Source: Escherichia coli (lineage in GTDB: Bacteria > Pseudomonadota > Gammaproteobacteria > Enterobacterales > Enterobacteriaceae). Taken from it: DNA of 64,000 bases. The translations under genes were made by a program, and so were the position numbers. Shown here piece after piece: positions 3,076-20,323 of this stretch (positions within the stretch are counted from its first letter, which is position 1; the number at the start of each line of letters is the position of its first letter). Location of the stretch: NCBI RefSeq assembly GCF_045037415.1, contig NZ_CP173438.1. The stretch is one strand, 5' to 3'. The notes under the pieces are model-generated. The model ran no database searches, was not told the DNA's origin, and saw nothing but the letters and a program-made list of their open reading frames with translations.

Positions 3076-4722
3076 TCAGGATTTTTTCTTCTCGCGGCTA
3101 TGCAAGCCACGTTTTTCCAGACCACGGTAAATCAGCTGCTGCTGAATAATGGTTACCAGGTTGCTGACGATATAGTACAGCACCAGACCTGACGGGAACC
3201 ACAGGAAGAACACAGTGAAGATGACCGGCATAAAGGTCATGATCTTCTGCTGCATCGGGTCGGTCACAGTGGTCGGCGACATCTTCTGAATGAAGAACAT
3301 CGTTACGCCCATCAGGATCGGCAGGATGTAGTACGGGTCCTGTGCAGACAGGTCGTGGATCCACAGTGCAAACGGTGCCTGACGTAGTTCAACGGAACCC
3401 ATCAGCATGTAGTACAACGCCAGGAAGATTGGCATCTGGATCAGCAGCGGGAAGCAGCCGCCCAGCGGGTTAACCTTCTCAGCTTTGTACAGCGCCATCA
3501 TTTCCTGGCTTATGCGCTGTTTGTCATCGCCCAGACGCTCACGCATTGCCTGAATCTTCGGCTGCAGCATACGCATCTTCGCCATGGAGGTGTACTGCGC
3601 TTTGGTCAGCGGGTACATGATGCCACGAACGATAAAGGTGATGATGATAATGGAGAAGCCCCAGTTACCCACAAAGCTATGGATCCATTTCAGCAGTTTG
3701 AACAGTGGCTGAGAGATGAACCACAACCAACCGTAATCAACGGTCAGATCCAGGTGCGGAGCAACAGCTGCCATTTTGTCCTGAATTTCCGGGCCAACCC
3801 ACAGGGTGCTGTTCATCGCGCCAGTCTGACCAGGCTGAACCAGTACCGGCTGAGATTTATAGCCGATAGCGGCGATGCCGTTACCCAGATTAGCGGTGTA
3901 GAAGTTGTTGGTACCGTCGTTATGCGGGATCCACGCCGTCGCGAAATACTGTTGCAGCATTGCCACCCAACCACCTTTCGAAGAGATGTTCAGGTTTTCG
4001 TTATCGGCAATGGTATCGAATTTGTATTTCTCGTACTTCTCGTCAGGCGTGGAGTACGCCGCACCACGGAAGGTGTGCAGTGCGAAGTTGCTGCTTCCGG
4101 TATCGAGATGCGGTGGCAGAGTGATGGATTGCTTCAACTGACCAAAGGTGGAGATTTCCAGCGGTTTCTCGCCAGCGTTCTGCACGTTGTAGTTGACGTT
4201 GACAGCGTAATCACCACGTTTCAGGACAAACGTTTTGGTAAACGTGTTGCCTGCCGCGTCGGTATACGTCATCGGCACCTGCAGTTCGTTTTGACCTTCA
4301 GCCAGCACATAAGCGTCTTTTTCAACGTTATATAGCGGACGCGGGCCGTTAGCCGGGTTATCCGGGCCATCACGACCGGTCAGACCGCTCTGTGCCTGAT
4401 AAATAAACTGCGGTGAAGTTTCCAGCAGCTGGAACGGCTGGGTAGAGTTCAGCTCTTTCGGGTAAGCCGGCAGCAGGGCCTGCTCAACATCACCACCACG
4501 GGTGTTGATGGTCAGATCAAGCACGTCGGTCTTAACCGAGATCAGTTTCCCCTGGCCACTGGCCGGTACGCCCTGGTCGGCGGCGCTACCCGCTGCGGTG
4601 GTCGTTGTCTGCGTGGTCTGTTGGGCCTGAGGTTGCGGGTTTTTATCCTGCTCCCAGGCTTGCCAGATCATGAAAGACACGAACAGCAAAGCGATGACTA
4701 AAAGATTGCGTTGCGAATCCAT
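3076..4722 (-). CDS. yidC: membrane protein insertase YidC
   Basis: 548-aa ORF starting [23 protein letters not shown], recognised as YidC. Confidence 0.96.
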
Positions 4723-13604: not shown

Positions 13605-14261
13605 TTAACAATTTCTGGTCGTGCATAAAATCAGGAACTGGAGTGGTGACGTTACTATATCCAGCGTAAGAGTGACTGGCAGCAGCGCATTAACGAGGCC
13701 GCGCGGGACGCCATCTGTTGCTTTGTACTCATAAAATCCCACCGTAAAGGGTTGATGGAAAACCATCACGTTTGAGTAATCCGCTTTTTTATTTTTCTGG
13801 TGGATTGAGCCTTTCAAACCGTCCAGCATCCATGTACAACGCCGGGTATCACAAATAAAACCATATTGTGTTGCCAGTGCCTTATCTTCTTCGTTGTTCC
13901 AGTCGTAATAGAGCGTAATAGCACCAGAGAAATTCTTATTACTGCTGCTTAAAATAAATTTCGCGTTATCAGAAACGGTGATTCTTTCACCATGGATTGC
14001 CGGATCGTTCAGCATGTTAACCACCTCATCGCCGCCGGTGGTCAATAGATAGTCCAACGATTCACCAACAAAAACATAACCTTTCGTACCGTTACTGTCT
14101 TCAGCCAGCGATAAACCCTTAATCGTGTCTGACCGCCATTGCTCGGCATGTGGACGGCTTGCAGTATTGGAAACCAATCCCCAGGTGATACATCCGGTCA
14201 ACGCAAATGCCAAAGAACACAAACCGGCAGCCTTAAAAAATCCTTTAAAATTCAATTTCAT
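13605..14261 (-). CDS. yidX: putative lipoprotein YidX
   Basis: ORF with lipobox LTGC after a signal peptide; start trimmed to MKLNFKG. Confidence 0.8.
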
Positions 14262-14399
14262 GATTAATCCTTTAAACAAGAGTGCTAAGCCGTTGAAAGC
14301 ATACTCTTCTTTCCCTCCTGTTTAGCGCCTGATCTCCCTTTTCAGATTTTTGCCCGACGTAGAACATTTTCTTATGGATTGTTCTTTTTGTGATCTAAA

Positions 14400-14476
14400 T
14401 TGTAGTACAACAATATAAATTTGTACTACATTATGCGCACAGCAAACGCGAACGTCATCACGCTGGTACTACAAAA
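14400..14476. promoter_or_regulatory. dgo promoter/operator region with three GTACTACA-type repeats
   Basis: TTGTAGTACAA, TTGTACTACA and GGTACTACAAA upstream of dgoR; GntR-family operators are typically such palindromes. Confidence 0.5.
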
Positions 14477-14539
14477 TTGCCGCGTTATGCATCGATCGGG
14501 GTAAAGTAGAGAGGAACATACAGAGCACAAGGACTCTCC

Positions 14540-15229
14540 ATGACTCTCAATAAAACCGATCGCATCGTTATTACGCTGGGTAAACAGATCGTTCACGGCA
14601 AATACGTGCCAGGCTCGCCGCTTCCGGCTGAGGCAGAACTCTGTGAGGAGTTTGCAACCTCGCGCAACATCATCCGTGAGGTATTTCGTTCGCTGATGGC
14701 GAAGCGGCTGATTGAAATGAAACGTTATCGCGGGGCGTTTGTGGCTCCGCGTAACCAGTGGAATTACCTCGACACTGACGTACTGCAATGGGTGCTGGAA
14801 AACGACTATGACCCACGGCTTATCAGTGCAATGAGCGAAGTGCGAAACCTGGTAGAGCCGGCTATTGCCCGTTGGGCAGCAGAGCGCGCGACCTCCAGCG
14901 ATCTGGCGCAGATTGAATCGGCGCTGAACGAGATGATTGCTAACAATCAGGACCGCGAAGCGTTTAACGAAGCGGATATTCGCTACCACGAGGCGGTGCT
15001 GCAGTCGGTGCATAACCCGGTGTTACAACAACTGAGCATTGCGATCAGTTCGCTGCAGCGGGCGGTTTTTGAACGAACCTGGATGGGCGATGAGGCCAAC
15101 ATGCCGCAAACGCTCCAGGAACATAAGGCGCTGTTCGATGCGATAAGGCATCAGGACGGCGATGCGGCAGAGCAGGCGGCGCTTACCATGATCGCCAGCT
15201 CGACACGAAGGTTAAAGGAAATCACATGA
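14540..15229 (+). CDS. dgoR: GntR/FadR-family repressor of the D-galactonate operon
   Basis: 229-aa ORF MTLNKTDRIVITLGKQIVHGKYVPGSPLPAE... recognised as DgoR. Confidence 0.9.
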   Translation: MTLNKTDRIVITLGKQIVHGKYVPGSPLPAEAELCEEFATSRNIIREVFRSLMAKRLIEMKRYRGAFVAPRNQWNYLDTDVLQWVLENDYDPRLISAMSEVRNLVEPAIARWAAERATSSDLAQIESALNEMIANNQDREAFNEADIRYHEAVLQSVHNPVLQQLSIAISSLQRAVFERTWMGDEANMPQTLQEHKALFDAIRHQDGDAAEQAALTMIASSTRRLKEIT

Positions 15230-16104
15230 CAGCTCGCTACATCGCAATTGACTGGGGATCGACCAATCTGCGCGCCTGGCTTTATCAGGGCGACCACTGC
15301 CTGGACAGCAGGCAATCAGAAGCAGGCGTCACGCGCCTGAATGGAAAATCTCCGGCTGCGGTGTTAGCAGAAGTGACGACCGACTGGCGTGAAGAGAATA
15401 CGCCAGTGGTAATGGCAGGAATGGTCGGCAGCAATGTCGGCTGGAAAGTTGCGCCGTATTTATCCATTCCTGCCCGTTTTTCGTCTATTGGCGAACAATT
15501 AACGTCTGTTGGCGACAATATCTGGATTATTCCCGGATTATGCGTCTCTCATGACGATAACCACAATGTGATGCGTGGCGAAGAAACACAATTGATCGGC
15601 GCGCGCACTCTCGCTCCTTCCTCTCTTTATGTCATGCCCGGTACGCATTGCAAATGGGTGCAGGCCGATAGCCAGCAAATTAACGATTTTCGCACCGTGA
15701 TGACCGGTGAATTACATCATTTACTGTTAAATCACTCATTGATTGGCGCAGGTTTGCCGCCGCAGGAAAACGCTGTCGATGCTTTCGCGGCTGGTCTTGA
15801 GCGTGGCCTTAATGCGCCCGCCGTATTGCCACAGCTTTTTGAAGTTCGCGCCTCGCATGTGCTGGGAACACTTCCCCGCGAACAGGTCAGCGAATTTCTC
15901 TCTGGTTTGTTGATTGGCGCAGAGGTCGCCAGTATGCGCGACTATGTGGCCCATCAACAAGTCATCACCCTTGTCGCCGGAACATCGCTGACCGCGCGCT
16001 ACCAGCAAGCCTTTCAGGCGATGGGTTGTGACGTGACGGCGGTGGCGGGCGACACGGCATTTCAGGCTGGTATAAGGAACATCGCTCATGCAGTGGCAAA
16101 CTAA
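15226..16104 (+). CDS. dgoK: 2-dehydro-3-deoxygalactonokinase
   Basis: 292-aa ORF overlapping the dgoR stop (ATGA); dgo operon synteny. Confidence 0.9.
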   Translation: MTARYIAIDWGSTNLRAWLYQGDHCLDSRQSEAGVTRLNGKSPAAVLAEVTTDWREENTPVVMAGMVGSNVGWKVAPYLSIPARFSSIGEQLTSVGDNIWIIPGLCVSHDDNHNVMRGEETQLIGARTLAPSSLYVMPGTHCKWVQADSQQINDFRTVMTGELHHLLLNHSLIGAGLPPQENAVDAFAAGLERGLNAPAVLPQLFEVRASHVLGTLPREQVSEFLSGLLIGAEVASMRDYVAHQQVITLVAGTSLTARYQQAFQAMGCDVTAVAGDTAFQAGIRNIAHAVAN

Positions 16105-16705
16105 ACTCCCGCTGATCGCCATTTTGCGCGGCATTACGCCCGACGAGGCGCTGGCGCATGTTGGCGCGGTGATTGACGCCGGGTTCGACGCGGTTGAAAT
16201 CCCGCTGAATTCTCCACAATGGGAGCAGAGCATTCCCGCCATCGTTGATGCGTATGGCGACAAGGCGTTGATTGGCGCAGGTACGGTACTGAAACCTGAA
16301 CAGGTCGATGCGCTCGCCAGAATGGGCTGTCAGCTCATCGTTACGCCCAATATCCATAGTGAAGTGATCCGCCGTGCGGTGGGCTACGGCATGACCGTCT
16401 GCCCCGGCTGCGCGACGGCGACCGAAGCCTTTACCGCGCTCGACGCGGGTGCGCAGGCACTGAAAATATTTCCGTCATCGGCTTTTGGTCCGCAATACAT
16501 CAAAGCATTAAAAGCGGTATTACCACCGAACATCGCGGTCTTTGCCGTTGGCGGTGTGACGCCAGAAAACCTGGCGCAGTGGATAGATGCAGGCTGTGCC
16601 GGAGCGGGCTTAGGTAGCGATCTCTATCGCGCCGGGCAGTCCGTAGAACGGACTGCGCAGCAGGCAGCAGCATTTGTTAAGGCGTATCGAGAGGCAGTGC
16701 AATGA
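16088..16705 (+). CDS. dgoA: 2-dehydro-3-deoxy-6-phosphogalactonate aldolase
   Basis: 205-aa ORF in the dgo operon. Confidence 0.9.
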
Positions 16706-17850
16706 AAATCACCAAAATTACCACGTATCGTTTACCTCCCCGCTGGATGTTCCTGAAAATTGAAACCGATGAAGGCGTGGTCGGTTGGGGCGAGCCCGTG
16801 ATTGAAGGTCGCGCTCGCACGGTGGAAGCGGCAGTCCACGAGCTGAGTGACTATTTGATTGGTCAGGACCCGTCACGCATCAACGACTTATGGCAAGTGA
16901 TGTATCGCGCCGGATTTTATCGTGGCGGTCCGATTCTGATGAGTGCCATCGCCGGGATCGACCAGGCTTTATGGGATATCAAAGGCAAAGTGCTGAATGC
17001 GCCGGTCTGGCAACTGATGGGCGGCCTGGTTCGCGACAAAATTAAAGCCTACAGTTGGGTCGGCGGCGATCGTCCGGCGGATGTTATCGACGGCATTAAA
17101 ACGCTACGCGAAATCGGCTTCGATACCTTCAAACTGAACGGTTGTGAAGAACTGGGGCTAATTGATAACTCCCGCGCGGTAGATGCGGCAGTCAACACCG
17201 TGGCACAAATTCGTGAAGCTTTTGGCAATCAGATTGAGTTTGGTCTGGACTTCCATGGTCGCGTCAGCGCGCCGATGGCGAAAGTGCTGATTAAAGAGCT
17301 GGAACCGTATCGTCCGCTGTTTATTGAAGAGCCGGTGCTGGCGGAACAGGCCGAATACTACCCGAAACTGGCGGCACAAACGCATATTCCACTGGCGGCG
17401 GGTGAGCGCATGTTCTCACGCTTCGATTTTAAACGTGTGCTGGAGGCAGGCGGTATTTCGATTCTGCAACCGGATCTCTCCCACGCAGGCGGTATTACCG
17501 AATGCTACAAAATTGCCGGAATGGCAGAAGCCTATGACGTGACCCTTGCGCCGCACTGTCCGCTCGGACCGATTGCACTGGCGGCTTGCCTGCATATCGA
17601 CTTTGTTTCCTATAACGCCGTCCTTCAGGAACAAAGTATGGGCATTCATTACAACAAAGGCGCGGAGTTACTCGACTTTGTGAAAAACAAAGAGGACTTC
17701 AGCATGGTCGGCGGTTTCTTTAAACCATTAACGAAACCGGGCTTAGGCGTGGAAATCGACGAAGCTAAAGTTATTGAGTTCAGTAAAAATGCCCCGGACT
17801 GGCGTAATCCGCTCTGGCGTCATGAAGATAACAGCGTAGCAGAGTGGTAA
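16702..17850 (+). CDS. dgoD: D-galactonate dehydratase
   Basis: 382-aa enolase-superfamily [28 protein letters not shown]... Confidence 0.92.
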
Positions 17851-17969
17851 TTCCTGCCACGTAAGCCCCTCATCGGGCACTAAAACAGCAATACAAAAAT
17901 ATAACCCTCTGTAAATTACAGTGCATGGTGAGCGGCTTCGCTATGCCCAAAATCAGGAGAAAGCTCGCT

Positions 17970-19262
17970 ATGGATATTCCCGTTAATGCAGCAAAGCCGG
18001 GGCGTCGGCGTTATCTGACGCTGGTGATGATCTTTATTACGGTGGTCATTTGTTATGTTGACCGTGCTAACCTGGCCGTGGCTTCTGCCCATATTCAGGA
18101 AGAGTTTGGTATTACTAAAGCGCAAATGGGCTATGTATTTTCGGCCTTCGCCTGGCTTTATACGCTATGTCAGATCCCCGGCGGTTGGTTTTTAGATCGC
18201 GTAGGTTCACGCGTGACTTATTTTATTGCGATATTTGGCTGGTCAGTGGCGACGTTATTCCAGGGCTTTGCCACGGGCTTAATGTCATTAATTGGTCTGC
18301 GCGCGATAACCGGTATTTTCGAAGCGCCCGCGTTCCCGACCAATAACCGGATGGTAACCAGTTGGTTCCCGGAACATGAACGCGCTTCTGCCGTTGGTTT
18401 TTATACGTCTGGTCAGTTTGTCGGTCTGGCGTTTCTGACTCCGCTGCTGATCTGGATTCAGGAGATGTTGAGCTGGCACTGGGTGTTCATTGTCACCGGT
18501 GGTATCGGCATTATCTGGTCGCTGATTTGGTTTAAGGTTTATCAGCCGCCGCGTCTGACCAAAGGCATCAGCAAAGCTGAACTGGATTACATTCGTGATG
18601 GCGGCGGTCTGGTGGATGGCGATGCGCCGGTGAAAAAAGAGGCGCGTCAGCCGTTAACAGCCAAAGACTGGAAACTGGTGTTCCATCGTAAACTGATCGG
18701 TGTCTATCTTGGGCAATTTGCGGTGGCTTCTACACTGTGGTTTTTCTTAACCTGGTTCCCGAACTATTTAACCCAGGAAAAAGGAATCACGGCGCTGAAA
18801 GCAGGTTTTATGACCACGGTGCCATTCCTCGCGGCGTTTATTGGCGTCCTGCTCTCTGGCTGGGTCGCGGATCTGCTGGTACGTAAGGGCTTTTCACTGG
18901 GCTTTGCGCGTAAAACGCCGATTATCTGCGGCTTGCTGATCTCCACCTGCATTATGGGTGCGAACTACACCAACGATCCGATGATGATTATGTGCCTGAT
19001 GGCGCTGGCATTCTTCGGCAACGGTTTTGCTTCGATAACCTGGTCGCTGGTCTCTTCTCTGGCACCGATGCGCCTGATTGGTTTAACCGGCGGCGTGTTT
19101 AACTTTGCCGGTGGTCTGGGCGGCATCACCGTTCCGCTGGTGGTGGGGTACCTGGCGCAGGGTTACGGTTTCGCGCCTGCACTGGTTTATATCTCCGCCG
19201 TCGCGTTGATTGGCGCGCTCTCTTACATCCTGCTGGTGGGCGATGTGAAGCGCGTTGGATAA
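17970..19262 (+). CDS. dgoT: D-galactonate transporter (MFS)
   Basis: [25 protein letters not shown]... with AGGAGA RBS; track start trimmed to the ATG at 17970. Confidence 0.9.
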
Positions 19263-20323
19263 TCTTTCAACTGTGGAATATGTGCCACTCCACTGCGCAT
19301 AATCCACTTTCTTAAAGCCGGTGCGGTCAGGCATCGGCTTTTTACTATCTTGCCGAAGAGTTTTAAACGCAGTTTGCGAGTGGCGCGCCAGTAAGCGGTA
19401 TTGAGCTTCTCTGGCTGCTTCAGTAATACCGAACGCAGAATCTCTGCGCTATCCAGCGCATAGCTAATCCCCTCCAGCGAGCTGGCGCTGATAAATCCCG
19501 CCGCTTCGCCAATCAGAAAGGCGTTGTCCTTGCCGCAGACAAAATCCTGCCAGCGTGAGGGAAACAGCACCGTGCATTTTTCGCTTTTCACCGCCTTACC
19601 AAACTGGAACTGAAAGGCGCTCATTTTCTCTTTTAGCGTCGTGAAACGCGTCTGACCGTCTTTCATGGGATAGGCACCGCCAAAGATAAAATAACCGTCT
19701 TTGCTGATACTCCATGAGTAACAGTCAGTTATCGCATTATCAAAGATGCAGGAGTAGAACGGTACCGGATGTTTCTCTGCGAACCACTGCTGGATGGCGA
19801 CATATTTACGAATCTGATGATCCGGGTAGAGATGTCGCCGCACCATCGAGTTGGCACCATCGGCACCGACCAGATAGCGGGCGGTAATATGCTGCTCCCA
19901 GCCGTCTGCGCGAAAAATGACATGCCATTTATCATCCTCACGCCAGATTTTTCGACACAGGCTGTCGTGGTAAACCTCAACGCTGGCGGGGATCAGCGAT
20001 TTCATCCACAAGTCGAAAGCATGGCGATTAATATTGATATAGCTTCGCTGGTAGTTACGCGTGAGCGATGCGGCGACGTCGACGGTTTTGACGCTGAAAA
20101 TCTGCGGGTTGGCGATGACATCGACAGGAAGCGTCAGTCCATCGCGAATAAAAGATCGCTGCGCGTCCGGTGCCAGAAGACCGCCACAAGGTTTGCTGAA
20201 ACCTTCAGTACCACACTGGTGCTTTTTATCCAGCGCGATCACCTGCATTTTGCCTGCTAACTTTCGCGCCAACGCCGACCCTGCCGGGCCGAGGCCAATA
20301 ATCGCCACGTCGAAATGTTCCAT
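19223..20323 (-). CDS. cbrA: FAD-dependent oxidoreductase CbrA (YidS)
   Basis: [27 protein letters not shown]... with FAD-binding GxGxxG; 3' end overlaps dgoT convergently. Confidence 0.85.

Follow-up and report, generated by a model that had tools for sequence, protein, structure and literature searches.

How many operators does DgoR, the autoregulated repressor of the D-galactonate operon dgoRKADT, use at its own promoter, and what would an additional one contribute? Among the sugar-acid regulators of the GntR/FadR family none has been studied as well as DgoR, which makes its promoter a reference system, and the model published for Escherichia coli K-12 names two operators, not three. The window analysed here, a stretch of 64,000 nucleotides of E. 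coli DNA, contains three 11-bp palindromes of the TTGTA-N-TACAA type within the 278-bp intergenic region between yidX and dgoR. We consider, with a probability of about 0.85, that these repeats, designated S1, S2 and S3, form the operator array of this GntR/FadR-type repressor. In itself the finding adds nothing new, two sites being proven and all three having been predicted years ago. If functional, a conserved and never perfect S3 located beside the basal promoter, and ignored by the two-operator model, could explain the resting levels of repressor and transporter.

The 301 bp around the repeats match E. coli chromosomes, with matches in 5424 of 5426 complete genomes and several strains 100% identical. 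One of the identical strains, 4/1-1, displays the gene order dnaN-recF-gyrB-yidB-yidA, followed by the 657-nt yidX on the opposite strand and by dgoR-dgoK-dgoA-dgoD-dgoT. In the window, the yidX start codon is found at 14261 on the minus strand and the intergenic region extends from 14262 to 14539. The product of the downstream gene carries GntR and FCD domains (Pfam) and aligns over all 229 residues with PDB 7C7E, the entry for E. coli DgoR (E=4e-149; Lin et al. 2020). This gene, which also heads dgoRKADT, is dgoR.

The preliminary description of this DNA had reported a triple repeat at 14400-14476 upstream of dgoR, and all three motifs are present at these positions (Table 1). A repeat finder independently recovered the same arrangement, with GTACTACA occurring twice, 43 bp apart, and the S2 and S3 cores matching S1 exactly when it is reverse-complemented. 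The motifs had been labeled half-palindromic; this term has to be abandoned, as each of them is a complete 11-bp inverted repeat in which TTGTA and TACAA flank a single base, and hence a complete binding site for a single dimer of the repressor. The central base on the + strand is G in S1 and C in both S2 and S3, and the distances to the dgoR ATG are 140, 119 and 76 bp, respectively.

Table 1. Regulatory features of the yidX-dgoR intergenic region and the downstream gene, in window coordinates
Feature	Position	Strand	Basis
Class II CRP site; left half TGTGA 14389-14393	14386-14407	+	Belliveau 2018; 22-bp extent deduced here
S1, DgoR operator IR1, TTGTAGTACAA	14400-14410	unstranded	0 mismatches to TTGTA-N-TACAA; published IR1; PWM 23.3 bits
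S2, DgoR operator IR2, TTGTACTACAT	14421-14431	unstranded	1 mismatch, last base; published IR2; PWM 18.6 bits
-10 element TACATT of the CRP-dependent, galactonate-inducible promoter, inside S2	14427-14432	+	Belliveau 2018; sequence confirmed
S3, predicted third, weaker DgoR operator, TGGTACTACAA	14464-14474	unstranded	1 mismatch, position 2; Suvorova 2015 supplement; PWM 6.6 bits
Downstream basal RNAP site 'P2'	14470-14510	+	Belliveau 2018; putative hexamers deduced here: candidate -35 TTGCCG 14477-14482, TAAAGT 14502-14507
Conserved box GGTAAAGTAG, contains TAAAGT	14500-14509	+	near-invariant in 79 aligned Enterobacterales sequences
dgoR, GntR/FadR-family repressor gene, first in dgoRKADT	14540-15229	+	ORF; annotation of identical strain; Pfam; PDB

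Such a cluster is hardly compatible with coincidence. Allowing at most one mismatch, TTGTANTACAA has five matches in the 64 kb against 1.54 expected, and three of the five lie inside 75 bp. Three matches within 80 bp were encountered in none of 300 first-order Markov simulations of 64 kb each, and a Poisson model predicts 2.7e-6 such triplets per window. The two remaining matches, at 3407 and 42754, are single, fall inside long ORFs and are probably due to chance. The former, ATGTAGTACAA at 3407-3417, resides inside a 548-aa ORF (3076-4722, minus strand) and reaches 13.4 bits with a position weight matrix (PWM) derived from the orthologues of S1 and S2, a score higher than that of S3. From 14262 to 19300, no further DgoR-like site with at most one mismatch was detected outside the promoter cluster; with up to two mismatches, the sole extra match outside the cluster is situated at 18107, inside dgoT.

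It could be argued that the repeats are a chance cluster or an RNA structure in the dgoR leader rather than protein sites. Being reverse complements, S1 on the one hand and S2 and S3 on the other could in principle pair. We regard this explanation as extremely improbable. Judging from its -10 element TACATT at 14427-14432, the inducible promoter would start transcription near 14439, which leaves S1 and S2 upstream of the start and thus outside the transcript. Shuffled versions of the leader (14439-14545) fold just as well as the leader itself (z = -0.30), which has no Rfam match at E<=1 and shows no compensatory changes that would support a hairpin at S3. The chance expectation of about 3e-6 per window and the published binding of DgoR at S1 and S2 also argue against it.

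This binding was established on the K-12 promoter. A 2025 report gives the sequence of IR1 as CTAAATTGTAGTACAACAATAT; this inverted repeat is perfect, its close neighbour IR2 has one mismatch, and the dgo promoter is overlapped by both (NAR 2025, PMC11705089). The published 22-mer is identical to window positions 14395-14416; therefore, S1 corresponds to IR1 and S2 to IR2. According to the K-12 Sort-Seq study, a repressor footprint extends from -140 to -110 relative to the dgoR ATG and is lost upon deletion of dgoR or in the presence of D-galactonate, and DgoR was enriched by DNA-affinity chromatography and mass spectrometry on a probe covering -145 to -110 (Belliveau et al. 2018, PMC6003448). 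Transposed to the window, the footprint spans 14400-14430 and covers S1 and S2. Binding of DgoR to both sites is also supported by EMSA. The suggestion that the motifs are plausible DgoR operators is thus borne out for S1 and S2, which are the proven operators IR1 and IR2, and S3 was predicted in 2015 and is conserved. A 55-nt probe carrying both inverted repeats is bound by DgoR with a KD of ~0.5 uM and released by 1.6 mM D-galactonate; the protein behaves as a dimer in size exclusion. Singh et al. 2019 is reportedly the primary paper on the K-12 dgoRKADT promoter and its operators IR1 and IR2. Three DgoR sites, TTGTAGTACAA, TTGTACTACAT and TGGTACTACAA, were tabulated for E. coli b4479 (Suvorova et al. 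2015 supplement, PMC4494728). The triple motif is therefore already known: all three sites were predicted in 2015 and two of them have experimental support.

Belliveau 2018 (PMC6003448) places a class II CRP site with a TGTGA logo at -160 to -140 from the ATG, a non-optimal wild-type -10 element, TACATT, between -120 and -100, and a separate RNAP site, visible in glucose, at -70 to -30; this downstream site is described there as active in glucose with DgoR present. In our analysis, the right half of the CRP site is poor and overlaps S1 and the -35 region. The candidate TTGCCG/TAAAGT pair of the downstream site has an atypical 19-bp spacer, and S3 ends 2 bp before this candidate -35. The GGTAAAGTAG box, inside the reported -70 to -30 RNAP site and exactly 36 bp after the first base of S3 in 75/78 species, shows stronger conservation than is usual for a -10 region.

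A consensus promoter scan recovered neither published promoter on the + strand and nothing at P2. Its sole match is a sigma-70-like sequence on the minus strand, ATGACG-17-CATAAT (9/12, 14430-14458), facing yidX. The candidate -10 of this match abuts and overlaps the right edge of S2, and K-12 has TGTAAT at this place. If this candidate promoter is real, DgoR might act on yidX too. The spacer between S1 and S2 contains TATAAA (TATAAG in K-12) at 14414-14419 and is poorly conserved outside Escherichia. In a dgoR deletion strain, three overlapping RNAP sites were observed, only one of which has a clear TATAAT-like logo (Belliveau 2018, PMC6003448); the element at 14414-14419 is probably the -10-like sequence behind this logo. 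Another feature of the CRP half-site is a GATC sequence at 14392-14395 (TGTGATC), 5 bp left of S1, whose A (14393) occupies position -147 relative to the dgoR ATG. In Salmonella dgoR, a hemimethylated GATC in the putative CRP site bears the same number, -147, and has been linked to Dam-dependent ON/OFF heterogeneity (PMC7708049).

The part of the mechanism that involves S1 and S2 has been shown in K-12, where the operator sequences are those of the window. In the absence of D-galactonate, both S1 (IR1) and S2 (IR2) are covered by DgoR dimers. Because S1 overlaps the right half of the CRP site and the -35 region while S2 contains the -10 element, RNA polymerase and CRP are both excluded from the inducible promoter. 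D-galactonate frees DgoR, and CRP-cAMP then activates this promoter. S3 would be a third and intentionally weak operator, located at about +26 to +36 from the inducible start and, if TAAAGT is the -10 element of the basal promoter, at about -50 to -40 (centre ~-45) of the latter. It would be filled only at a higher DgoR level, or with help from DgoR at S1 and S2. A dimer on this site would get in the way of RNA polymerase at the basal promoter and could also obstruct read-through transcription from upstream; by damping both, a filled S3 would fix the amounts of DgoR and of the transporter at rest.

To place these elements in an evolutionary perspective, dgoR loci were collected from Enterobacterales with one genome per species, and the 78 species with enough upstream DNA were analysed; as the species are related, the counts given below overstate the number of independent events. 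The spacings, measured from start to start, were as follows: 11 bp from TGTGA to S1 in 71 of the 78 species, 21 bp from S1 to S2 in all 78, 43 bp from S2 to S3 in 69 species (42 bp in six and 44 bp in three, hence 43±1 in 78/78) and 36 bp from S3 to the GGTAAAGT box in 75. The distance between this box and the ATG is 34-42 bp in 76/78 species, with a mode of 40 bp (41/78). The stretch bounded by the CRP site and the GGTAAAGT box behaves as one rigid 130-bp module. In an alignment of 79 sequences, S1, S2 and S3 form near-invariant islands, and the spacers at 14411-14420 and 14433-14458 are almost unconserved.

The three sites differ in quality. S1 is perfect in 72 of the 78 species and S2 carries exactly one mismatch in 71. 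S3 is perfect in none: it has one mismatch in 66 species and two or more in the other 12. The mismatch affects position 2 (TGG or TAG) in Escherichia, Salmonella, Klebsiella and Citrobacter, and position 8 (TGCAA or TTCAA) in Enterobacter, Buttiauxella, Cedecea and others. Because a single mismatch is maintained in this manner, the comparison suggests that the low affinity of S3 may be tuned, feedback occurring only at higher DgoR.

Is S3 then bound by DgoR? By sequence alone it is a weak site, ranking seventh of 64,000 positions with 6.6 bits, below the isolated intragenic match at 3407 (13.4 bits), and its case as a putative operator rests on positional conservation. The G at its position 2 stays within the FadR-subfamily TKGT consensus; in most genera, the mismatch removes the core AC of one half-site. 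We searched for published DgoR binding on S3 and found none; Singh et al. 2019 may already have tested this site. A third site is also listed for E. fergusonii, Shigella, Salmonella, Klebsiella, Enterobacter, Cronobacter and Serratia (Suvorova 2015, PMC4494728). An alternative, to which we grant a modest chance, is that only S1 and S2 are operators and that S3, not bound by DgoR in vivo, is conserved for another reason related to the basal promoter; its A-rich right half, ACAAAA, could be a proximal UP-element-like sequence (~-46 to -38), or S3 as a whole could be bound by another factor. The two-inverted-repeat model of the experimental groups persists in 2025, S3 being absent from the accessible portions of their reports (including PMC11705089). 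Sort-Seq over the intergenic region, in the available part of the publication (PMC6003448), mentions a repressor signature at -140 to -110 only and none at -76 to -66, and Reg-Seq, noting that the promoter had been examined earlier at base-pair resolution, reported no further sites. The low PWM score of S3 points in the same direction, as does its spacing, which has a single value relative to the GGTAAAGT box in 75/78 species as against 69/78 for S2, as if S3 were part of the basal-promoter module. Yet the conserved positions of S3 follow both DgoR half-sites, T.GTA and T.CAA, and an A-tract does not explain the left half. The variable positions shift from genus to genus, whereas a single mismatch is kept in 66/78 species, and the same motif type was predicted as a DgoR site across genera (PMC4494728).

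A second CRP left half-site that could pair with the conserved TCAC located just before S3 was also sought; GCAAA, the sequence at that place, is unsuitable and the pairing was rejected.

We return to S3 as an operator, a prediction to which we give slightly better than even odds. For the complete proposal, in which S3 would be a functional, deliberately sub-optimal third DgoR operator that sets resting DgoR and DgoT, its feedback on the basal promoter and read-through varying with the DgoR concentration, we estimate an even chance. An improved version of S3 would be TTGTACTACAA.

S3 might also serve the inducible promoter instead of the basal one, as an auxiliary operator that cooperates with DgoR-bound S1 and S2, by DNA looping or by a protein bridge, and tightens repression. 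The geometry speaks in favour: the centre-to-centre distances of 21, 43 and 64 bp, or about two, four and six helical turns, place S1, S2 and S3 on the same side of the helix, and the S2-S3 distance is kept within ±1 bp in 78/78 species over an otherwise unconserved 32-bp spacer. Precedents exist in AraR of the GntR family, which binds adjacent sites cooperatively, and in the tetrameric Atu1419 of the GntR superfamily. We nevertheless attribute only a small chance to this arrangement. DgoR was reported as a dimer by size exclusion, a loop of 43-64 bp would be very short, and the 55-nt probe with IR1 and IR2 binds DgoR without S3. Moreover, the whole 130-bp block from TGTGA to the GGTAAAGT box has few indels and, for this reason, the 43-bp spacing alone is no proof of helical phasing between S2 and S3.

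The preferred reading, an array of three DgoR operators, can be compared with known systems. The operators of the FadR subfamily (FadR, PdhR, LldR, GlcC, ExuR) consist of TKGT and ACMA boxes with 3 nt between GT and AC (PMC4494728). S1-S3 fit this TKGT-N3-ACMA pattern; as in these systems, each palindrome would be bound by one dimer and repression would work via promoter occlusion. The DgoR array is unlike other operators of the subfamily in its sequence, TTGTA-N-TACAA, and in the distribution of three sites over two promoters. In combining strong sites on the promoter with a conserved weaker one some tens of bp off, on the same face of the helix, it is reminiscent of LacI O1/O2/O3 and of the adjacent AraR sites; the likeness is an analogy only, tetramerisation or looping by DgoR being hypothetical. 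A close precedent is the S1 File of Suvorova, Korostelev and Gelfand 2015 (PLoS One), with the same three E. coli 11-mers and the three-site arrangement in seven relatives. That file tabulates predictions and does not analyse spacings, whereas the 21 / 43±1 / 36 bp architecture and a never-perfect S3 were measured here in 78 species.

With respect to the K-12 dgoRKADT promoter (Singh 2019; Belliveau 2018; Arya et al. 2021; PMC11705089), the window presents the same locus and gene order. No base differs in the cores of S1, S2 and S3, in the CRP half-site or in the -10 element TACATT; K-12 experiments therefore carry over to the strain of the window. Over 201 bp of intergenic DNA (14340-14540), the window carries a minority allele, with at least 99% identity in 553 records and 90-95% identity in 3959, the latter including K-12 and BL21. 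K-12 itself is 93.5% identical, with 13 differences in the 201 bp, none of which affects S1, S2, S3, TGTGA or the GGTAAAGTAG box. Substitutions in the intergenic region are clustered at 14350-14377 and 14433-14441 and leave the recognised regulatory elements untouched.

Adaptive mutations repeatedly hit the dgo operon during colonisation of the mouse gut by E. coli; the gut-evolution papers describe dgoR coding or knock-out mutations only, and none in the operators. About 400 of the 5426 complete E. coli genomes are devoid of the entire dgoRKADT: the match to the window ends at ~14392-14403 and yidX abuts cbrA. The missing stretch extends from ~14391, inside the TGTGA of the CRP half-site, to ~19150, about 110 bp before the dgoT stop, with the junction ...TTTTTTGTG|GACTAATATC... 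Because this junction is identical in two strains, one from cattle (5.45 Mb) and one from a human (4.64 Mb), the observation suggests a single ancestral deletion in which all three operators were lost.
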